From: Promethearchaeota archaeon
GTDB taxonomy: Archaea > Asgardarchaeota > Lokiarchaeia > Sigyniarchaeales > SOKP01
Assembly: GCA_048940645.1 (NCBI GenBank)
Contig: JBHLOI010000019.1
Location: 1 to 57,023, forward strand
DNA length: 57,023 bases
Direction: 5' to 3'
The position numbers and the translations under genes are program-made. A model generated the notes under the pieces. It did not search any database, had not been told where the DNA came from, and worked only from the letters and a program-made list of their open reading frames with translations. Within the stretch, counting starts at the first letter, position 1, and each line of letters opens with the position of its first letter. Of this stretch, positions 3,260 to 12,866 are shown in pieces.

Positions 3260-3496
3260 TTACTTTACTGCTTCAAAATACATATACCATTGCTCATCGT
3301 CTTCTATGAAGTCTGTTCCTAAATGTTTATGTTTCGTTTTTGCTAAATCACGTGGTACGGATTCACTAGCAGGTTTGTAATCTGTTACCACCTTTAAAAC
3401 AGTTCCAGGTCTCATTTTCATGAGCTGTTTTTTGGTTTTTAAGGCTGGAACAGGGCACACTAACCCACAGACATTTAATTCCATATCAAATTTCAT
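3260..3496 (-). CDS. tusA: TusA/SirA-family sulfur carrier
   Basis: 78 aa; LNVCGLVCPVP (CPxP) and LKVVTD. Confidence 0.9.
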   Translation of the reverse strand: MKFDMELNVCGLVCPVPALKTKKQLMKMRPGTVLKVVTDYKPASESVPRDLAKTKHKHLGTDFIEDDEQWYMYFEAVK

Positions 3497-3528: not shown

Positions 3529-5991
3529 TTAATCACATATAATTGAAAATACTGGCTCATCCATATCAGCCTTCATTTCTAGTTCCATTAGTTGAACTAA
3601 GCGTAAAGCTTCATATCTAACTTTCTTTAGTTCAAGCCCGATATTTCTTGAGATTTCCGATATCGTACTTGAGCCTTGAAGTGTTATATAATCTAATACC
3701 TGCTGTCTTGGTGTTTTCTCAAAGTTCATTAATTCACGCTTTGATTTAAGATTAACAGCAGATTTCAACTTTTCTTCATTAACTTCTCCTTGTTCGAATA
3801 ATCCCTTTTCAATTGCATTCTCGACAAGTTCCTTACCTCGAGCGGTCCATACTACAACCGTAGTATAACCATTTTTTGAGCCTACTTCTCCTGCAGTAAG
3901 ATCAGAGAATATTGCAGGGAAATCTTGACAGTGAGTACAGAAATGATTGCAACTTAAACATCTTCTTGCTTCTTGTAAAGCCATATCTTCATTGAATATT
4001 TTGTCAATTTCTTCAAAACTCCAACTTATTTCTTCAGTAGCATCATTTAGAGTCTCTGGTTTTAATGAATAATCTTTTGGAGGTTTCTTAGGCCCAGTGA
4101 AAAACGAGTTCTCGATCTTAAACCTTCCTTCGATTAAGCTTTCTCCTTTCAAATAGCGATTAATTGAAAATGCTGCTTCCTTTCCATGAGCTATTGCAGC
4201 AATCGCTACAGCTTTAGAATTGCTGATAATATCTCCGCCAGCAAAAACTCCAGGAATATTAGTTTCAAAGGTAACTTCATTTACTTTTATTTTATTTCGC
4301 TCTTTTTCTAATTTATTATTTGTTGCAACATCTATTTGTTCGAAATCTACAGCCTGACCAACTGCTATTACAATAGAATCAACAGGTATTTCATAATCTG
4401 ATCCCTCAATTTTATTCAAAGGTCGTTTCCCATTTTCATCAGGATTGCCCCATTCAATATTATAACAATTTAAAACTAATTTTTCATCTTTATTCTGAGT
4501 AATATTAGAAGTGGAAGTTATAAAGTGATATTCTATAAAGTCCATTTCATTTTCAGGGATATCTCTTAAAACCAATTCAAGTTGTTCTTTTGACATGATA
4601 TCAACAAGATGGACTTTTTCAGCGCCTAACCTAAGTGCTGTTTGAGCAACATCAACAGCAACCGCTCCTCCTCCAATTATACCTAGAGTTTTACCCTTAA
4701 ATTCTTCTTTATTCTCCCAGTAGCGATATTTCCTATCCATTAGAAAACTAATTGCTACATGGACATTTGGTAAATTTTCCCCTTCTAAGTGTAGAGTACG
4801 AGGTTTATATTGACCAGTTGCTATAAAAATAGCTTCAAAACCAGTATTTTTTAGATCGTCAATAGTCATTTCAGGACCTAATGGTTTATTGAGTATAACT
4901 TCGACGCCGGAATCTATGATCCTACCTACATCATAATCTAATACATAATTAGGTAATCTAAACTGTGGTACTCCAAATCTTAGCATCCCTCCTGTTTGAT
5001 CTGTCTTCTCAAATATGGTGGGTGCATAACCCATTCTCCTTAAGAAATATGCCGCTGTTAATCCAGCTGGTCCAGATCCAATAATAGCAACTTTTTTAGC
5101 ATTTTTATTTGATTTAATCTTTGATTTTGAAGAATTTTTAGTTCTTTCAATCTCCCATTCTGTTACAAATTTCTTTAATTCACGAATTGCAACTGGATGG
5201 TCATCTCCAATTAAAGTACAGCCATGTTCGCACTCATTTGTACAAATTCTTCCACAAATAGAGGGAAGTGGATTTTTTTCTCTAATTAAATCTACAGCCT
5301 CTTGATATTTCCCTTGACGTATTAATGAAATATACCCTTGAGCATTAACACCAGAAGGACACCCATTACAACATGGAGAGCATACTATTCCCTTATCTGT
5401 TTGCTCAGTTCGAATTTGGGAATTACAGAACAACCCTATCTTTAAAATTTTTCTACTCATTTCTCCTTCAAGTTCAGCAGCTCCACGCATTTCACATGGT
5501 ACACCAACAATACCAATTGGATCGAATGTTTCCCCTGTGAGTTCTACTAATCTTTGTAGCACACCAGATCTGCCATAAATAACACCAGCCTTTTGAACTA
5601 CTTCATTAGGATCTGAAACTACTTCAGCGATAGGTTTTTCATCTTCTTCTTGAACCATGACAATTTCTTTAAGTGTTTCGTTTTCTAACAATTCTTTAGC
5701 AAAAGTTGTAACAAATCCTCCGCTTGATGCCTTAGTTAATATCTCAGGATTTTTACTCCTTAAAGAATATATCGCAAGAGGTTCTTTCTCTTTAAATTGC
5801 TTTTGAATTACTTGGGGGCAATTTTGATAACATTTTCCACAATCTTGGCCTTCTCTTTCCAATATACAAAAATCTTTCAATTTTGGACGTTTGACTTCCA
5901 TTTCAATATGCTTACACGAACCAGCACATAAGCCGCATCCTTGACATAGACCAGCATCTACTATTTCTTCTCTTAATAATTCAAAACTCAT
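3529..5991 (-). CDS. FrhB-family (F420-binding type) protein with an inserted GltD/SudA-like FAD/NAD(P) oxidoreductase module and C-terminal winged HTH
   Basis: N-terminal 2x[4Fe-4S] (CQGCGLC..C; CGKCYQNCP); FrhB motifs SSGG, VGVPCE, IGLFC; GltD block PCCNGCP, NPLPSICGRIC, IIGSGPAG, GGMLRFGVP, FAGGD, EARRCLSC; FrhB C-half CTHCQDF..SDLTAGEVGS..GYTTVVV; terminal wHTH-like segment. Confidence 0.8.
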   Translation of the reverse strand: MSFELLREEIVDAGLCQGCGLCAGSCKHIEMEVKRPKLKDFCILEREGQDCGKCYQNCPQVIQKQFKEKEPLAIYSLRSKNPEILTKASSGGFVTTFAKELLENETLKEIVMVQEEDEKPIAEVVSDPNEVVQKAGVIYGRSGVLQRLVELTGETFDPIGIVGVPCEMRGAAELEGEMSRKILKIGLFCNSQIRTEQTDKGIVCSPCCNGCPSGVNAQGYISLIRQGKYQEAVDLIREKNPLPSICGRICTNECEHGCTLIGDDHPVAIRELKKFVTEWEIERTKNSSKSKIKSNKNAKKVAIIGSGPAGLTAAYFLRRMGYAPTIFEKTDQTGGMLRFGVPQFRLPNYVLDYDVGRIIDSGVEVILNKPLGPEMTIDDLKNTGFEAIFIATGQYKPRTLHLEGENLPNVHVAISFLMDRKYRYWENKEEFKGKTLGIIGGGAVAVDVAQTALRLGAEKVHLVDIMSKEQLELVLRDIPENEMDFIEYHFITSTSNITQNKDEKLVLNCYNIEWGNPDENGKRPLNKIEGSDYEIPVDSIVIAVGQAVDFEQIDVATNNKLEKERNKIKVNEVTFETNIPGVFAGGDIISNSKAVAIAAIAHGKEAAFSINRYLKGESLIEGRFKIENSFFTGPKKPPKDYSLKPETLNDATEEISWSFEEIDKIFNEDMALQEARRCLSCNHFCTHCQDFPAIFSDLTAGEVGSKNGYTTVVVWTARGKELVENAIEKGLFEQGEVNEEKLKSAVNLKSKRELMNFEKTPRQQVLDYITLQGSSTISEISRNIGLELKKVRYEALRLVQLMELEMKADMDEPVFSIICD

Positions 5992-5993
5992 TT

Positions 5994-7229
5994 TTATCCC
6001 TCTTTTATTTTTATTTCTTTTACAATTCCTTCTGAGTCAATCTTATATTCTACCAAACCATTCTTATAAGTTCCTTCAACGATATCAATGATTTGGGTTT
6101 TATATTCATCAAATTTATCATTATCTTTGATTTGAGACTTAAAACCACCATAAAATAAGTTAGAAAGATTCATATTTCCTGCAAGTTTTCTTATTTCTTC
6201 TGATACCTTTTTATATTGCTTAGGATTTTCTTCTTTTATTGCTTTTTGGAGATCTTCTTCTAATTCAAGTAAATTTTTACGAATTTTCTGTGTTTCTTGA
6301 CTTACTTTAATTCCATTATCTTTTTCATAGCTTTCAATAATCTTAAGGGTTAATGAAATTGATTTATCTCCTCCTAATAATCCAGAAATTAAAGGTAATT
6401 CTTCGATTAACCTCCCTATAAACACATCTTCAAGTAAAGTCCCTTCTGAAGGGATTCTTCCTTTAGGTAAGCCAGAGGTTGGTAATGTAAATCTAAAGAA
6501 ATTCCCAACTATATCAGGCAAACTTCGTGTTACATCATCCTCATTATCAGCGAGTTTATCCGTAGCTCCTTTCTCAGAATGCTCAGTAGCGACTTCAATA
6601 TTACCCATTAAGGTACCAAACATACCTAACATTCTAATACCAGATCGCTCAACGGAAGGCTTACATCCTCTACATGGAGTATTATAATCTATACATCGTT
6701 CTTTGCATTCTTTTGCTACGAAACCATTACAAAGGAAGCCCAGATCATTAAAACAAGTCTCATTATCCCTTAATTCTATTTGACGGTGAACTTCATCTAA
6801 ATAATCACAAGTCCTTTTTCTTTTGCATACATCGCACAGATTTTTCGGTTGTGGTTTTCCCGATCCATCGATTGCTAATATTAATTCTTCAATTTCTCCA
6901 AGACATCCATTAACTTCAAATGAGACATTAATTAATTTGTTCAAAGGAGTGACCCTATGTCCTCTTTGATTAGCAAGAGCAAAGACTCCACCTGTGGTTG
7001 TACAATTTCCATATGCAATAACTCGTGTTGAATTTAATTTGATTTTTTTAATAACTTCATTATCCTCAGGTAATAGATATCCAGTAATTACAGCAACTTC
7101 GATTTTTTCTTCTTTCCAATTTTTTGGATTTGTAATTAATTGTATTGAATATTTTGAATTCTCTTTTAAGAGTATTGTCTCATTAAAACATTTATTACAA
7201 CCATTAAATTGAAATATTCTAACATGCAT
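5994..7229 (-). CDS. MvhG-like hydrogenase small subunit with C-terminal degenerate large-subunit-like extension
   Basis: GCNKC, IAYGNCTTTGG, NGC, CDVC, CFNDLGFLCNG, PCRGC and PDIVGNFFRFTLP (typical MvhG end), followed by about 150 extra aa. Confidence 0.8.
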   Translation of the reverse strand: MHVRIFQFNGCNKCFNETILLKENSKYSIQLITNPKNWKEEKIEVAVITGYLLPEDNEVIKKIKLNSTRVIAYGNCTTTGGVFALANQRGHRVTPLNKLINVSFEVNGCLGEIEELILAIDGSGKPQPKNLCDVCKRKRTCDYLDEVHRQIELRDNETCFNDLGFLCNGFVAKECKERCIDYNTPCRGCKPSVERSGIRMLGMFGTLMGNIEVATEHSEKGATDKLADNEDDVTRSLPDIVGNFFRFTLPTSGLPKGRIPSEGTLLEDVFIGRLIEELPLISGLLGGDKSISLTLKIIESYEKDNGIKVSQETQKIRKNLLELEEDLQKAIKEENPKQYKKVSEEIRKLAGNMNLSNLFYGGFKSQIKDNDKFDEYKTQIIDIVEGTYKNGLVEYKIDSEGIVKEIKIKEG

Positions 7230-7671
7230 CTTTTATCGTACCCTCCTCTCTTATTGCATTAGCTAATCTTTCAACTATATCTTCAAAGTCTCCCACTGCA
7301 GTTTCACCTTCCGCTGCTCGTGAGGTATATTGATTAACGAGTTGATCGCTATACCCTAATTCCTTGAATAATTTTTTCATGAGCTTAATTCTATGCATCG
7401 ATAAAATATTACCATTAAAAAAATGACATGCCCCTAAACAACATCCTACACAAGCTACAGCATCAGCTCCGTTATTTAATGCATCCATAATTTGGATTGG
7501 ACCTACTTGACCAGTACATTGTACTCTAATAATTCGAATTGCTGGCTCATATGCCATTCGAGCAACTCCAGCTGTATTTGCTGATCCTTGTCCGCATTCA
7601 TTACACATAAATACTACTACATTTTGAATTTTCTCAAGAACTTCTGGTTCGATATATTCACATTCAGTCAT
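7219..7671 (-). CDS. mvhD: MvhD/FlpD [2Fe-2S] subunit
   Basis: FMCNEC, IRIIRVQCTG, GADAV..VGC..GACHF; likely ATG at 7671, directly after the hdrA stop. Confidence 0.88.
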   Translation of the reverse strand: MTECEYIEPEVLEKIQNVVVFMCNECGQGSANTAGVARMAYEPAIRIIRVQCTGQVGPIQIMDALNNGADAVACVGCCLGACHFFNGNILSMHRIKLMKKLFKELGYSDQLVNQYTSRAAEGETAVGDFEDIVERLANAIREEGTIKDAC

Positions 7672-7672
7672 T

Positions 7673-9691
7673 TTAGCAAACAACTCCTCCGCCTGACACG
7701 GCGATTATTTCATCTAATAATTGATCCTCTGTAAAATTTAGTAATTGAATTGCTCCTGTGGGACAAGCAGGCATACACATGCCACATGATTTACATGCAA
7801 TTTCATTTATAATTGGACTTCCATCTGGACTAATCTCAATTGCTGCAGGAGCACACACAGTTTTACATAATCCACAATTAATGCATAAATCATAATCAAT
7901 TGAAGGGACTAACATCTCTTTTTCTATATATCCTTTAACTAAAGGAGCAGCAGCTAAAGCAGCGGCATTTCCAGCATGAGCCACAGTTTCTGAGATATCT
8001 TTTGGACCTTGAATAGTACCTGCTAAAAAAATTCCTCCTTTACTACTTAACGTGGGATTCATTTTGATATGAAATTCTTTTAAGAAACCTTCCTTTGAAC
8101 GAAGCACATGTAATTTAGAACCTAATGGTCCAATTCCCTCAGGAGGTACCATTGCAGCGGAAAGTACTACTAAATCTGCCTTGAGTTTTAAAGGAGTCTG
8201 ACTTAGAGTATCTTCTACTATAACTCTTAATTCACCTGAAACAGGATCTTTAAGAATCTCTGAAGGGCGACCTCTGATAAATCTTACACCTACTTCTTGA
8301 GCTGATTTATATAATTCTTCAAAATTTAATCCAGGGGTTCTCACATCAATATAACAAATAGTTACATCTGAGTCAGGATACATTTCTTTTACTATTCTTG
8401 CATTCTTTATTGCAAACTTGCAACATACACCTGTACAATATTGATTTCCCACCTGATCGTTTCTACTCCCAACACATTGAATCATCACTGTATTTTTTGG
8501 AATTTTACCATCTGAAGGCCGCAAAACTTGACTATTAGTAAGTGAAGTCGGTGATAACATTCGTTCCAATTTAAGTTGTGTGATAACATCGTCATAACCC
8601 TCTTGCCCATAGTGATACGGTTCAATTTCAGTAGGATCATATTCATCATAACCCGCTGCAACTATTATAGAACCAACTTTGAATGTTTTTGTTTCTGGTT
8701 CCATAGAAAAATCAACTGCCTGAACAGGACAAATATTAATACAGGTATTACACTCAATACACGCTTTTTTATCTCTTACATAAGTTGCAGGAATTGCTTG
8801 TGGATAAGCTTTATATATAGCATTCCTCATAGACATTCCACTATCCCATTCACTAGGGACTTCAACTGGGCAATTAGCAGCACACTCCCCACAAGAAGTG
8901 CAATTATCTTTAACATATCGAGGTTTAATTTCAATTTCAACTTCGAAATTTCCCATTGACCCTTCAATATTTTTAATTTGGGCATTAGTATATAACTCTA
9001 TTAAGGGATGATTCGCTACTCCATTTGTTAATGGAGAGATTGAGCATTGTGGACATTCTAACGTTGGAAAGGTTTTATTTAATTGTGTCATATGACCTCC
9101 AATTGTAGAATTTTTTTCAACTAAATAAACTGGAATACCCAACTCCGCCATGTCATATGCAGATCTAAGTCCTGCGATACCTGCACCAATAACCAATGCT
9201 GCTTTAGTAGTTGGGATTTTCCTAGTTTCAACGTCTTCTAATTTTCTTGCTCTGTTAACTCCTGCTTCAACTAGTTTCATTGCTTTATCTGTTGCCTTTT
9301 CTTGCTCCTTTTGATGAACCCAGCTACAGTATTCTCGTACATTTACTTGCTGATGTTTATGCTTATTCAATCCCATTTCTTCAATTGCTTTAGCAAAAGT
9401 TCTTCCATGCTGATTTTTAGAACAAGATGCTACAACTGTTCGATTAACGCCTAATTCTTTAATAGAATCCTTAACCATTTGGACTCCAGGTTTTGAACAC
9501 ATAAACATATAATGCTCTGCTTTAACAACATTGGGTAATGTTGAAGCATATTCAGCAACTTTAGCTACATCTACAGTTCCAGCAATATTATGTCCACAAT
9601 GACACACAAACACTCCTATTTGTGGTTCATCAGTCTCAACTTTTTCCCCTAAACTTTTAACATTATCTAATTTTTCTTCTTTTATGGTCAA
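7673..9691 (-). CDS. hdrA: Heterodisulfide reductase subunit A
   Basis: IGVFVCHCG.NIAG, NVREYCSWVH, VIGAGIAG, KTFPTLEC, inserted and C-terminal ferredoxin motifs, IQCVGSR..YC..VCC; likely TTG start at 9691 after a GGAGG-rich site. Confidence 0.95.
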   Translation of the reverse strand: MTIKEEKLDNVKSLGEKVETDEPQIGVFVCHCGHNIAGTVDVAKVAEYASTLPNVVKAEHYMFMCSKPGVQMVKDSIKELGVNRTVVASCSKNQHGRTFAKAIEEMGLNKHKHQQVNVREYCSWVHQKEQEKATDKAMKLVEAGVNRARKLEDVETRKIPTTKAALVIGAGIAGLRSAYDMAELGIPVYLVEKNSTIGGHMTQLNKTFPTLECPQCSISPLTNGVANHPLIELYTNAQIKNIEGSMGNFEVEIEIKPRYVKDNCTSCGECAANCPVEVPSEWDSGMSMRNAIYKAYPQAIPATYVRDKKACIECNTCINICPVQAVDFSMEPETKTFKVGSIIVAAGYDEYDPTEIEPYHYGQEGYDDVITQLKLERMLSPTSLTNSQVLRPSDGKIPKNTVMIQCVGSRNDQVGNQYCTGVCCKFAIKNARIVKEMYPDSDVTICYIDVRTPGLNFEELYKSAQEVGVRFIRGRPSEILKDPVSGELRVIVEDTLSQTPLKLKADLVVLSAAMVPPEGIGPLGSKLHVLRSKEGFLKEFHIKMNPTLSSKGGIFLAGTIQGPKDISETVAHAGNAAALAAAPLVKGYIEKEMLVPSIDYDLCINCGLCKTVCAPAAIEISPDGSPIINEIACKSCGMCMPACPTGAIQLLNFTEDQLLDEIIAVSGGGVVC

Positions 9692-9692
9692 T

Positions 9693-10610
9693 TTATACAG
9701 CCTCCTCCTCTTTATTAACCTCAATTCCTCCAAAAATGTAATTCTTCCCCATTAATTGATAATGTAAACCAACGAATTCTTGATTCATACCCATACAATA
9801 AGCAGTCAATTGACACAGGTGAATTACAGGATAATCATAATTACAATTTTTATTTTTATTCAAATAATCTTGTCCAGTTTCATATTGGAGATGACAGAAA
9901 GGACAAATATCTAATATAAAGTCTGGCTTTACTTCATCAATATTTTTCATCTTTTCTGCAAAAATAGTCATGCTAGCGTTACCATCATAGGCTTTAACGC
10001 CTCCTCCAGCACCACAACAAGTTAATTGCTCATTGAATCGGACAGATTGAATTCCTAAAGCTTCAACAAATTCTTCTATAATTGTTGGTCCTTCTGAGCT
10101 TTCAATCTCTCTAATTCTAGTAGGTTTCAGAAAATGACAACCATAATGTATTGCAGCTTTAGCGTTTACCTTTCGAACAATCAAATCTTCTATACCCCAT
10201 GGCCCAATCTCATAGCCTAACACCTCAGCTACATGTCTAACATCTATAATTCCCTTAAACTCATAATCTCCTATGAGTTTTAATTTTTCATTTACTAGAT
10301 TGCGATGTTCTTCATTTTCTTTTAAATGTTTATTTACTTCTTGCAAGGTTCCAAAACAACCATTACACACAGTTAAAATATCTGCTTCCAATTGTTCTGC
10401 TATACAGAGATTTCTTGCTGCCGCAACCATCCAATCAACTTTATTAAAAGAGCGAAACACTCCTGGTGCTGGGCAGCATGTTGCTCTTTCCATATCTAAT
10501 ATAGTATATCCTAGTTTTTCCATTACAAATTTCGTTGATTTCTCAATAGCAGGATATCGATTTGGCATCAAACAACCTAAAAAAAATGCAAATGTGTTTT
10601 CTTTTGCCAT
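9693..10610 (-). CDS. hdrB: Heterodisulfide reductase subunit B
   Basis: FFLGC..PNRYP, TCCPAPG, CNGC, HYGCH, CCGAGGG, CPFCHLQ (two CCG domains). Confidence 0.95.
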   Translation of the reverse strand: MAKENTFAFFLGCLMPNRYPAIEKSTKFVMEKLGYTILDMERATCCPAPGVFRSFNKVDWMVAAARNLCIAEQLEADILTVCNGCFGTLQEVNKHLKENEEHRNLVNEKLKLIGDYEFKGIIDVRHVAEVLGYEIGPWGIEDLIVRKVNAKAAIHYGCHFLKPTRIREIESSEGPTIIEEFVEALGIQSVRFNEQLTCCGAGGGVKAYDGNASMTIFAEKMKNIDEVKPDFILDICPFCHLQYETGQDYLNKNKNCNYDYPVIHLCQLTAYCMGMNQEFVGLHYQLMGKNYIFGGIEVNKEEEAV

Positions 10611-10613
10611 TTT

Positions 10614-11171
10614 TTATGCCTCCTTCTTTTCTTTTTTTTCCTCCTTAATTGGAGGTAAATCAAACATAAATTCTTCAATTTTTTTTAAATCTCTATCATC
10701 TCCTTCCTGCTTAAATTTAAATGCAGTAGGAGGTAACTCTTCTAACCCTAATTCGATTCTTCGTTGTTTAACTTCATCATTTATTGGTACTGCATGACCA
10801 AAGTTTTTTAAATACCCTACAACAGCCCTATGATTAGGAGATATATTGCCTAATTTGGTAGCATAATTTCGCAACTCCATTATTACATCAGTTGGTCTAA
10901 CATCACGAGGACAGCGTTCATAACACTGGTAACAAGTAGTGCAAAGCCATATATCTGGATCTTTCAATACTGACAAATCTCCTAAGACAACTTTTCTCAC
11001 AATTGAACGAGTTTTTAAAGCAGTCCATCTTCCACTTTCACAGCTCGCTGTACATGTTCCACATTGAATGCACTGCCAAATTTTTGATTTTCTTTCGATA
11101 TTTTTAAAAAATTCTTTATCAAAATCTTCGTCTGTTTTATACTCCCTTGCTTGTTCTTCTACATCAGACGT
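10614..11171 (-). CDS. hdrC: Heterodisulfide reductase subunit C, extended to a probable ACG start
   Basis: The frame is open 57 codons upstream of the called GTG (11000) and encodes IWQCIQCGTCTASC; second motif IWLCTTCYQCYERCPR; the frame begins TAA ACG TCT GAT GTA GAA GAA behind AAGGTGA. Confidence 0.9.
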   Translation of the reverse strand, partial: TSDVEEQAREYKTDEDFDKEFFKNIERKSKIWQCIQCGTCTASCESGRWTALKTRSIVRKVVLGDLSVLKDPDIWLCTTCYQCYERCPRDVRPTDVIMELRNYATKLGNISPNHRAVVGYLKNFGHAVPINDEVKQRRIELGLEELPPTAFKFKQEGDDRDLKKIEEFMFDLPPIKEEKKEKKEA

Positions 11172-11218: not shown

Positions 11219-11644
11219 TTATAATGAGACTATTCTGCCTCCATCACTCATTTCTAGAAATGTAGCGGCACCAACAGGTTCTTCTACCCAATCAAGTAAT
11301 TCTTCTCTTTTTATTCCCATTAAATCCATAGTCATTTGACATGGATATAACTTCATATTTCCGTTATCAACAGCGTCTTTAATCATTGCCCATGGATCTT
11401 CAATTCCGAATTTTTTCATTCTTTTCTTAAACATATTTGCTGCCATACCTTTCATAGGAGCAGGCATTCCAGCAACTTTAGGTTTAAATTTCTTTTTTAA
11501 AAGGTTTAATCCCCAAAAAGTGAAGAAGAAATTCATTTTAGTGTCCATGGCATCACCTGTTGTTCCAAGGATCATCATCATTGCGAATTTTTCGAATGAT
11601 TTATCCTTTACAATAAAATTTACTGTTTCAGTCATAATTTCCAC
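11219..11644 (-). CDS. DsrE2-like (DsrE/DsrF/DsrH-like) sulfur relay protein
   Basis: FFFTFWGL, LYPCQMTMDLMGI and VGAATFL motifs. Confidence 0.85.
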   Translation of the reverse strand: MEIMTETVNFIVKDKSFEKFAMMMILGTTGDAMDTKMNFFFTFWGLNLLKKKFKPKVAGMPAPMKGMAANMFKKRMKKFGIEDPWAMIKDAVDNGNMKLYPCQMTMDLMGIKREELLDWVEEPVGAATFLEMSDGGRIVSL

Positions 11645-11683
11645 CTTAATTTTCTTTTTTTTTGAATTTATTATCTAATTTGC

Positions 11684-11700
11684 GTTAACAAATTGTTAAC
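11684..11700. promoter_or_regulatory. Perfect 17-bp palindrome, candidate operator
   Basis: GTTAACAA-A-TTGTTAAC, 40 bp upstream of the dsrE2-hdr block. Confidence 0.45.
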
Positions 11701-11767
11701 CATGATTATTGGTTTTTTTAAAAAATTTTTATTATATTTACTTTAAAACATATTGTACATTCTTAAA

Positions 11768-12109
11768 TTACATCCAGGATATAACTTTCTGAGAATTATC
11801 TAATAGATCAACGAGCTCTGTATACTCAATGGGTTTAATTTTTTCATGTATGTGTTCCAACGGAATCCCTCTTGCCTTAAAATCTGGTTTCATAACATAC
11901 AGTTTAAAACTTAAGTTTCCAAGTTGCTCCATTGATAAAGTCATTTTTCCTTTTGACGAAGCGCCAATAACTCCATCATGAATTAGAACCATTCCTATGG
12001 ATTTTCCTTCTTGTAAATGGTGTTTAATAATTGGTAATAATCGATTTAATTCATTTCCATATCTAGGGCTAAATCCAAATAAGTAAATCATGTCAAAATT
12101 TTGTTCCAT
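11768..12109 (-). CDS. dsrH: DsrH/TusB-family sulfur relay protein
   Basis: VLIHDGV, DFKARGI, IEYTELVDLL...KVISW. Confidence 0.85.
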   Translation of the reverse strand: MEQNFDMIYLFGFSPRYGNELNRLLPIIKHHLQEGKSIGMVLIHDGVIGASSKGKMTLSMEQLGNLSFKLYVMKPDFKARGIPLEHIHEKIKPIEYTELVDLLDNSQKVISWM

Positions 12110-12123
12110 CTTATTTCATCACC

Positions 12124-12501
12124 TTAAAATCTAAAAATTGTATCTGCATTTTCAAATAATTTTGAAAGCTCATCAATGTTAATTATCGATAAACCTTCAT
12201 AATTTACGAGATCTTGTTCAGTTAAGCCTGCGTCCTTCAGTGCTGTATCAAGTGCTAAGATTTCTAAATCTGATAACTCCGCCATCTCTAATGGTTCATC
12301 AAAAGAATCTATTCCAAGTATTGTTGGGTCTGCGTGTTTACTTATTAAGTAAACCGCATCACCCATTAGCACCACTTTGCAGTCAATCTCTTCCCCTAAT
12401 CCCATAAATCCCGCACCTAACCTTAAACTTTCACGGGCAGAATTCTTTCCAATTGGAGATTGGTCAGTCACTATTATCACTGATTCTATCATCGCGTTCA
12501 T
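12124..12501 (-). CDS. dsrF: DsrF/TusC-family sulfur relay protein
   Basis: SPIG...ARESLR, VLMGDAVY, ADTIFRF; lies between dsrE and dsrH. Confidence 0.8.
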   Translation of the reverse strand: MNAMIESVIIVTDQSPIGKNSARESLRLGAGFMGLGEEIDCKVVLMGDAVYLISKHADPTILGIDSFDEPLEMAELSDLEILALDTALKDAGLTEQDLVNYEGLSIINIDELSKLFENADTIFRF

Positions 12502-12866
12502 CCCCCTGTTCCGAACGTAATTAATTTTTCTGATTCAGCAGTCCAGTTTGACAATTCACCTAAACCCTCTTCCTTTGCTCCATCAATAAAACACTGTTCC
12601 TTCAATCCACACAAACCAATCCATGTTGTACAACCTGCCACAGGAATATTATGCTCTTTAATGAATTTTTCCAACTGTGTTGGTAAATTCCGAACCGTTA
12701 TACCAGTTTCAATATCTTTTTTTATATTATAAACTCCACTTCCATAGAAGAAAATTCCTTTAATTGAATGCCCTTTTTCTAAAACTGCTTTACATAAATT
12801 TAATAGAGAGTCCACTGCTTCAAACTTATATGGTTCAGTAGATATCATGAATGTATATGTTGCCAA
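12498..12866 (-). CDS. dsrE: DsrE/TusD-family sulfur relay protein
   Basis: EPY, KGH.I..IFFYGSGVY, conserved Cys (AGC), GLGEL...SEKLITF. Confidence 0.85.
   Translation of the reverse strand: MATYTFMISTEPYKFEAVDSLLNLCKAVLEKGHSIKGIFFYGSGVYNIKKDIETGITVRNLPTQLEKFIKEHNIPVAGCTTWIGLCGLKEQCFIDGAKEEGLGELSNWTAESEKLITFGTGG

Follow-up and report, generated by a model that had tools for sequence, protein, structure and literature searches.

Evidence for a cofactor-free relic of the [NiFe]-hydrogenase large subunit fused to an MvhG-type small subunit in an Asgard heterodisulfide reductase operon

Can a heterodisulfide reductase (Hdr) operon that carries the small subunit of a hydrogenase make use of hydrogen? 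This question is raised by a stretch of 57,023 nucleotides from a Promethearchaeota archaeon (contig JBHLOI010000019.1, positions 1-57,023, assembly GCA_048940645.1), which is called the window here. An open reading frame (ORF) on its minus strand begins like MvhG, the small subunit of the Mvh-type [NiFe] hydrogenase, and continues into a tail formed by the last ~151 residues and the stop codon (positions 5994-6450), in which a sequence-only reading of the DNA had seen a miniaturised, metal-free remnant of the large subunit. We regard it as nearly certain that the ORF encodes a group-3c (MvhG-type) [NiFe]-hydrogenase small subunit, fused C-terminally to a large-subunit remnant of ~150 amino acids. 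The gene and its parts are as follows:

5994..7229, minus strand: fusion ORF, MvhG-type small subunit plus large-subunit relic, 411 amino acids and stop codon
6444..7229, minus strand: MvhG-like iron-sulfur (Fe-S) body, residues 1-262 (Pfam, PDB sequence matches, Foldseek)
5997..6464, minus strand: large-subunit relic, residues 256-411 (AlphaFold2 tail model, VIA-align, hhalign, ESM-Atlas)
6369..6431, minus strand: degenerate L1 region EDVFIGRLIEELPLISGLLGG, residues 267-287 (HMMER to FrhA 44-106, hhalign)
6363..6374, minus strand: GGDK, residues 286-289, in place of the nickel-binding CGxC (HMMER and hhalign columns)
6141..6182, minus strand: AGNMNLSNLFYGGF, residues 350-363, counterpart of GGxxxHP....GG (weak HMMER stretch, hhalign)
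6015..6083, minus strand: IVEGTYKNGLVEYKIDSEGIVKE, residues 383-405, strands corresponding to the VEAPRG...D..G hairpin (segment hhalign, P 7e-4; structural alignment)

The identity of the body is clear from sequence and structure matches. Residues 1-262 match the Pfam family Oxidored_q6 (PF01058, E 5.7e-13), and the closest PDB sequences are the MvhG chains 9sw2_E (E 6e-19; query 91-262 aligned to 135-306 of 308) and 5odc_E (E 2e-15; query 91-255 aligned to 131-295 of 299). Since these alignments run up to the C-termini of the solved chains and stop just 2-4 residues short of them, the normal MvhG end that had been recognised in PDIVGNFFRFTLP at residues 238-250 is real. A Foldseek search with the full-length model ranked 5odi_E (E 1.4e-8) and 5odc_E highest and matched small subunits alone; the likeness to large subunits needed a model of the tail by itself.

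The body is ~40 residues shorter than MvhG. All 13 of its cysteines (11, 14, 76, 109, 132, 135, 141, 159, 167, 175, 179, 186 and 189) lie before residue 190, the last histidine is H217, and positions 11, 14, 76 and 109 are those of the proximal cluster. Twelve of the 13, all but 141, hardly vary or do not vary at all in relatives with as little as ~33% identity and align with the cluster-ligand cysteines of MvhG. The retained set matches the number sufficient for three [4Fe-4S] clusters, which the protein is predicted to bind. In the clade of this gene, the fourth proximal-ligand motif GCPP is replaced by GCLG; distant members retain GCPP, which can be seen in the full-length proteins P0137 and P0138.

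For the tail, the evidence comes from profiles. A tail profile built from 24 sequences and searched against all PDB sequences returned FrhA as the top match (6qgt_A, E 8.6e-4), with tail residues 12-74 paired to FrhA 44-106, the L1 region, in the HMMER alignment; four further group-3 large-subunit sequences matched at the same position. A second and weak HMMER stretch pairs AGNMNL..SN..GGF of the tail with IAGGEAIHPSNPRIGG. In hhalign, with 26 aligned Asgard large subunits from the genome matches as target, the tail reached 93.6% probability (P 2e-7) and a score of 55.7, compared with 18.7 for the reversed tail profile and a mean of 14.0 (standard deviation 2.5, maximum 20.7) for 30 column shuffles. 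Here, tail residues 10-114 pair with large-subunit columns 42-180 and residues 118-156 with columns 356-403. The C-terminal 41 residues alone find their best placement in the same columns 356-403, which hold the VEAPRG...H.Y..D..G hairpin (P 7e-4).

The sequence-only reading had proposed that the tail follows three large-subunit motifs in order, and all three indeed align in that order, beyond the shuffled controls. The stretch compared with 'EKF..GR..EEAP.I..RICG.C', EDVFIGRLIEELPLISGLLGG, aligns to L1 of FrhA and of other group-3 subunits in both HMMER and hhalign. With the same two programs, the counterpart of 'EI...LGGR.IHP....PGG', which reads AGNMNLSN..GGF at residues 350-363, falls on GGxxxHP....GG, and the match to 'VEAPRG.L.H.Y..D..G.V' is borne out by the placement of the last 41 residues. 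Furthermore, when 201 Asgard genomes were searched in six frames with the tail profile, a single match lay outside its own family (G034:C283, E 5.6e-6): a contig-end fragment that an independent PF00374 match shows to be the N-terminal part of a true large subunit.

Two negative results speak against homology. Pfam searches of the ORF or the tail at E-values up to 0.1 gave no match to PF00374, and pairwise BLASTP alignments of the tail with each of the three true large subunits of this genome were not significant (E at least 0.15). The best of these non-significant alignments (to P0124) fell on L1 and the VEAPRG hairpin. A phmmer search with the tail against 1.84 billion representatives returned 18 proteins, all of them members of its own family or fragments, and no large subunits; a single-sequence search is too weak to detect the homology of the tail. 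DUF6809, DUF6985 and YbaB, considered as identities of the tail, were dismissed as sub-threshold Pfam noise.

The predicted fold was compared with known structures by several methods. The AlphaFold2 model of the tail alone is of high confidence (predicted local distance difference test, pLDDT, 91.9; predicted template modelling score, pTM, 0.86) and consists of four core helices and a three-stranded sheet. In an exhaustive VIA-align comparison with 48,161 representative PDB chains, the leading 15 matches were all [NiFe] large subunits or complex-I homologues (Z 9.6-13.6, 145-156 of 156 residues aligned, root-mean-square deviation (rmsd) 2.3-3.5 Å), and the next match followed at Z 5.3, with the caveat that helical domains may score high Z values by chance. 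The list is headed by Z values of 13.6 (FrhA, 6qgt_A), 12.8, 12.3 and 12.2 (MvhA, 5odc_F), with 148 of 156 residues aligned at an rmsd of 2.5; chains of complex I and MBS reached 9.6-11.2. Foldseek with the tail-only model likewise returned large subunits or complex-I 49-kDa homologues for all of the leading 17 PDB matches, the best being 6qgr_A (template modelling (TM) score 0.59 by query), with individually weak E-values of at least 0.02. A shape search of the ESM-Atlas found the family itself first and then large subunits at TM scores of 0.78-0.82. In the full-length model (pTM 0.74), 129 residues fall below a pLDDT of 50, which is the cluster-binding middle, modelled without clusters; because the pTM reaches this value despite that segment, the model suggests a confident relative placement of the N-terminal domain and the tail.

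Could this likeness be chance or convergence in a generic helical bundle? The caveat on Z values, the Foldseek E-values of at least 0.02 and the missing Pfam match would fit such an explanation. It is hardly credible to us, as the leading 15 structural matches belong to one superfamily, include the sheet and are set off by a gap in Z from 9.6 to 5.3, the profile evidence with its shuffled controls agrees, conserved residues coincide and the tail sits in the position of mvhA. The sequence-only reading had staked its claim beforehand on profile or structural similarity of the tail to NiFe large subunits, and such similarity was found by profile-profile comparison, the PDB profile search, Foldseek, VIA-align and ESM-Atlas. 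We are highly confident that the tail is homologous to the large subunit of [NiFe] hydrogenases.

What has been kept of the large subunit, and what has been lost? Within the L1 region EDVFIGRLIEELPLISGLLGG, R273, E276, I281 and G287 are invariant in the family, and within AGNMNLSNLFYGGF the same holds for G351, L355, S356, N357 and G362. The family-invariant residues E276, I281, G287, E299, E302, R317 and L320 are identical to the aligned residues of FrhA, and R273 agrees with an arginine in the Asgard large-subunit consensus, which is as expected from divergence from a real large subunit. At the positions of the L1 motif RxCGxC, the tail reads L-L-G286-G287-D288-K289: the first cysteine has become glycine, the glycine is kept and the second cysteine has become lysine. 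Both cysteine positions are non-cysteine throughout the family.

The structural alignments cover large-subunit residues from ~38-40 to ~398-402 of 437-447. The L0 motif RxEGH is gone, the alignment starting at large-subunit residue 38-40 with the MvhG end and a linker in front of it; the L2 motif DPCxxC(xxH) is gone as well, with the fusion ending ~10 residues past the equivalent of the VEAPRG hairpin. Altogether, the first ~38, ~175 central and the last ~45 residues are missing and some helices are shortened, so that the relic is one third of the size of a large subunit. The tail contains not a single cysteine or histidine. These observations agree with the earlier claim that the L1 cysteines were lost, the tail is free of cysteine and L2 is absent: GGDK stands for CGxC, and neither cysteine nor histidine follows residue 217. 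Because all four ligand cysteines are absent, the relic is, by its sequence, not able to hold a Ni-Fe centre or to react with H2. The Hdr operon that contains the fusion thus resembles a hydrogenase operon yet almost certainly cannot use hydrogen.

A permuted relic was considered too, in which the last strands would represent the N-terminal RxEGH hairpin. This placement gave P 0.095, compared with 7e-4 for the VEAPRG hairpin, and was rejected. The better score of the VEAPRG placement and a sequential structural alignment over 148 of 156 residues favour a non-permuted, internally deleted large subunit.

A search for homologues of near-equal length returned 364 proteins, and every source name among the 120 listed belongs to Asgard phyla, such as Promethearchaeota, Hodarchaeota, Thorarchaeota, Odinarchaeota and Hermodarchaeota. 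The expectation of the sequence-only reading that homologues consistently lack cysteines in the tail holds for 114 of 119 full-length relatives, and the few cysteines of the others are at non-conserved positions. Among the sampled genomes of the phylum, 23 of 201 carry the tail; beyond the source genome and one fragment match, these belong to two families (17 of 40 and 4 of 43 genomes). Conservation of the tail is strong: 16 columns do not vary in an alignment of 22 sequences whose identity falls as low as 32%. A search for fused forms of more than 720 amino acids, such as MvhG with a full MvhA, found nothing that scored, which is weak evidence.

Some members of the family deviate in length or at their ends. 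Free-standing tails were rejected as a real split form: the 43 short proteins come mostly from contigs below 4 kb, several are labelled 'partial' and a few start from an internal methionine. P0125 (337 amino acids) jumps from CRGCTP to ENVFVGRLIEE and lacks ~75 residues between the last cluster cysteine and the relic; an error of assembly or gene calling would explain this, and so would a shorter form that occurs naturally. A distant clade (P0134, P0135, P0137, P0138 and P0142) ends in ...GIIREWSCE[LF], with a single C-terminal cysteine that is missing from the clade of the window.

The genes around the fusion form a tightly packed, co-oriented run of DsrE/DsrF/DsrH/DsrE2-like genes, HdrC, HdrB, HdrA, MvhD, the fusion, an FrhB-like gene and TusA. 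From upstream to downstream, the neighbours are:

11219..12866, minus strand: four genes, DsrE2, DsrH, DsrF and DsrE-like, upstream of hdrC
10614..11000, minus strand: HdrC, 128 amino acids as listed
9693..10610, minus strand: HdrB, two CCG domains
7673..9733, minus strand: HdrA
7219..7683, minus strand: MvhD (FlpD), directly upstream of the fusion and overlapping its start (Pfam FlpD, E 3.9e-32)
3529..5991, minus strand: FrhB-like flavoprotein with an inserted GltD-like NAD(P)H/FAD module, 820 amino acids, directly downstream of the fusion (Pfam FrhB_FdhB_N/C, Fer4_20, Pyr_redox_2)
3260..3496, minus strand: TusA, last gene of the cluster

The order HdrC-HdrB-HdrA-MvhD-fusion-FrhB-like is found in the window and in all five long loci examined (L036, L037, L052, L053 and L054), and none of these six cassettes contains a large-subunit gene. 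MvhD is retained directly upstream of the fusion on the short contigs L038 and L039. The association of the fusion with MvhD and HdrABC is one of gene neighbourhood and does not imply physical binding. DsrE-family genes lie near the cassette in all five long loci, often together with TusA: the DsrE2/DsrH/DsrF/DsrE-like set recurs next to it in L052, L053 and L054, and DsrE genes were called in L036 and L037.

The FrhB-like gene follows the fusion directly at its 3' side, with an overlap of ~10-14 nucleotides in related loci. A plain FrhB of 345-389 amino acids occupies this position in L036 (9256-10293), L037 (9199-10368), L052 (8376-9446) and L053 (8782-9825). The GltD-like insertion of ~450 amino acids is restricted to the window's own family, in agreement with a fragment that closes L054, and is a local elaboration. 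All FrhB-like proteins share a conserved C-terminal segment of ~60 amino acids, by visual inspection similar to a winged helix (LAE.LN....YHLLVLQ..G).

HdrC of the window, as listed, starts with GTG and matches the second half of dicluster ferredoxin models only. Its orthologues in the five loci have 173-183 amino acids vs 128 listed here, and the true start is for this reason probably upstream of the listed one, beyond any in-frame ATG, GTG or TTG.

Is the fusion perhaps still part of a working hydrogenase, supplied with a large subunit from elsewhere? The genome encodes three true [NiFe] large subunits, all of them on other contigs than the fusion: a genome scan with PF00374 gave six matches on contigs C94, C85 and C31 and none on the contig of the fusion. 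Contig C31 (L055 6823-11417, minus strand) carries a canonical HdrA::MvhD-MvhG-MvhA cluster, and the genome hence also holds a genuine H2-linked Hdr arm. Its parts are an HdrA::MvhD of 848 amino acids with an N-terminal domain like DUF7347 or a winged helix-turn-helix, an MvhG of 252 and an MvhA of 432 amino acids with RICGLC and DPCISC. A second cluster on contig C94 comprises a small subunit, VhuA, VhuU (with selenocysteine), HdrC and HdrB. As this genome has both a canonical and a VhuA/VhuU cluster, the relic operon is an extra, paralogous Hdr system.

Pairing of the fusion in trans with one of these full-length subunits would be conceivable, given their presence on other contigs and the intact proximal-cluster ligands of the fusion. 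We consider it very unlikely, for every true large subunit adjoins a small subunit of its own, none of the six cassettes has a large-subunit gene and the relic, by homology, would take up the place in the fold where a large subunit has to sit.

The C94 cluster has some features of its own. Its true large subunit of 438 amino acids (L056 6147-7463, plus strand) ends in ...KLPDPWIK and lacks the C-terminal DPCxxC; a short ORF 25 nucleotides downstream (L056 7488-~7640, plus strand) reads ...RCFDCULSCAAH... if one TGA is taken as selenocysteine. The two genes resemble a VhuA/VhuU-type [NiFeSe] hydrogenase in split form. The ending of the VhuA-like protein is shared by many of the Asgard large subunits from the sampled genomes. 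The small subunit (L056 4827-6146, plus strand) is unusually long with 439 amino acids; it still ends in ...FTEKFTLA, as MvhG-type proteins do, and the extra length is internal.

How might the fusion have arisen, and what could it do? In the canonical order mvhD-mvhG-mvhA, the relic occupies the place of mvhA, which, together with the canonical paralogue in the same genome, fits fusion and decay in place. Most likely, mvhG was fused with the following mvhA, of which around two thirds were then lost. The explanation that we favour overall, and hold to be probable, is a decayed and fused relic in a non-catalytic Fe-S module of an HdrABC-MvhD complex. The fusion would act as an electron-transfer module, with reducing power entering via the downstream FrhB-like flavoprotein, the likely electron-input subunit. 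The donor would be of the F420H2 type in the relatives, and the GltD insert points to an NAD(P)H-capable protein here. The relic itself may persist by covering and stabilising the small-subunit face around the proximal cluster that is normally buried by the large subunit, in line with the proposal of the sequence-only reading that it caps the small subunit and makes it an Fe-S wire. We infer this capping geometry, as well as the electron path and the electron donor of the fusion.

Some background knowledge counts against this role. In the solved Frh and Mvh structures (4OMF, 5ODC), FrhB and MvhD both bind the small subunit at the end with its distal cluster. As they share this docking end, one small subunit may not connect to both, and its clusters may not lie on the main electron path at all. 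In the Elp-Hdr complex, moreover, ElpB feeds HdrA and ElpC and bypasses ElpA (PMC12350162).

If the distal end is taken, electrons could enter at the other side. The relic would then be a docking adaptor that leaves the proximal cluster exposed, the Fe-S cluster of the FrhB-like protein would feed the place of the former Ni-Fe centre and the chain would run from the flavin to MvhD. This arrangement is possible, and we give it clearly less weight than even chances. The FrhB-like gene always lies directly after the fusion with its ~10-14-nucleotide overlap, MvhD occupies the distal end in Mvh-Hdr (5ODC) and leaves the proximal side free, and 16 invariant tail columns in 22 sequences are seemingly more than a mere filler needs. 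The solved Frh structure argues otherwise, because FrhB binds the distal end of FrhG there and not the large-subunit side.

Alternatively, the fusion could lie off the electron path altogether. The FrhB-like proteins bear N-terminal ferredoxin-type cysteine motifs, as do FdhB and ElpB, and could dock on the N-terminal domain of HdrA and on MvhD, leaving the fusion as a structural leftover that scaffolds the mobile arm or stores electrons. The parallel is Elp-Hdr, in which the electrons go from ElpB via the N-terminal clusters of HdrA to ElpC and the truncated ElpA stands aside (PMC12350162). The twelve cluster cysteines, kept down to ~33% identity, argue instead for selected, redox-active clusters, and we consider an off-path role unlikely.

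A comparison with known systems helps to place the non-catalytic module that we prefer. By membership, the closest system is MvhAGD-HdrABC minus a functional MvhA: the cysteines for three clusters are of the MvhG type, the genes for MvhD, HdrA, HdrB and HdrC are neighbours and keep their order and the tail is homologous to MvhA. In contrast to that system, there is no full MvhA here but a fused relic of 150 amino acids that lacks L0, the L1 cysteines and L2, and an FrhB-like flavoprotein follows. By concept, the closest system is Elp-Hdr. ElpA is a truncated, cofactor-free FdhA in the F420H2-driven ElpABC-HdrABC complex of Methanothermobacter marburgensis, which combines such a catalytic remnant with an FrhB/FdhB-type flavoprotein for input and an MvhD homologue (PMC12350162). 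However, ElpA derives from FdhA and not from a hydrogenase, it is unfused, MvhG is missing and the complex belongs to methanogens and not to Asgard archaea. The cluster of the window has FrhB_FdhB_N/C downstream and FlpD upstream of the fusion, as in an Elp-type cluster, but no ElpA; the likeness is one of function, not of membership.

FrhABG (4OMF, 6QGR/6QGT) likewise combines a small subunit with FrhB, and FrhA is the best match of the tail in sequence and structure. Unlike the relic, FrhA is full-size, binds Ni-Fe, is unfused and has no association with Hdr or MvhD. In the complex-I family, NuoD/Nqo4 and MbsL have lost the nickel-binding cysteines as well and the partner homologous to the small subunit retains its Fe-S cluster, but these proteins are full-size (~370-590 amino acids), separate, membrane-bound chains with a quinone site or another new active site. 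The relic is one third of their size, of the soluble type and fused. Fusions of another kind are the archaeal HyhS::HydA hybrids, which join group F [FeFe] to group 3f [NiFe] hydrogenases and occur in Lokiarchaeia, too (PMC11216029). They share with our protein a group-3 small-subunit domain and a C-terminally fused domain; there, this domain is an active [FeFe] H-cluster domain with a true HyhL alongside, whereas here it is an inactive relic of the [NiFe] large subunit. Full-text literature searches found no description of an MvhG::relic fusion, and journals beyond those searched may hold one.

What follows for the reading of Asgard genomes? With the fusion beside MvhD and HdrABC, the cluster is easily misread as an H2-oxidising MvhADG-HdrABC system. 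The sequence-only reading had warned that such genes could be miscounted as hydrogenases, and the warning is justified because family members carry hydrogenase-subunit labels in public records, for instance 'coenzyme F420-reducing hydrogenase gamma subunit' at JGI (Joint Genome Institute). According to the proposal of a recent paper on an Asgard culture, a group 3c hydrogenase oxidises H2 and is coupled to Hdr, with persulfides bound to TusA and DsrE. Models of eukaryogenesis give hydrogen metabolism a central place, so that it is important to tell the Asgard Hdr systems that can really use H2 from those that cannot.

The relic can also be seen as a fossil of the decay of a catalytic subunit after its chemistry had been replaced, in parallel to ElpA and NuoD; its reduction in size exceeds theirs and was fixed by fusion. 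It marks the minimal part of a large subunit that is worth retaining for a small subunit, which is useful for the expression of small subunits alone. We tentatively raise the idea, more doubtful than probable, that nature has turned the electron-transfer arm of a soluble hydrogenase into one fed by a flavin. The shrunken, fused relic would offer an FrhB-type flavoprotein, here FrhB::GltD, a new way in at the proximal cluster, and F420H2 or NAD(P)H, not H2, would drive the Asgard Hdr-DsrE/TusA system. If true, an arm fed in this way would alter the conclusions on hydrogen dependence that are drawn from Asgard genomes. For specialists in hydrogenases and in Asgard metabolism alike, the fusion separates a cluster that looks like Mvh-Hdr from one that can use H2.

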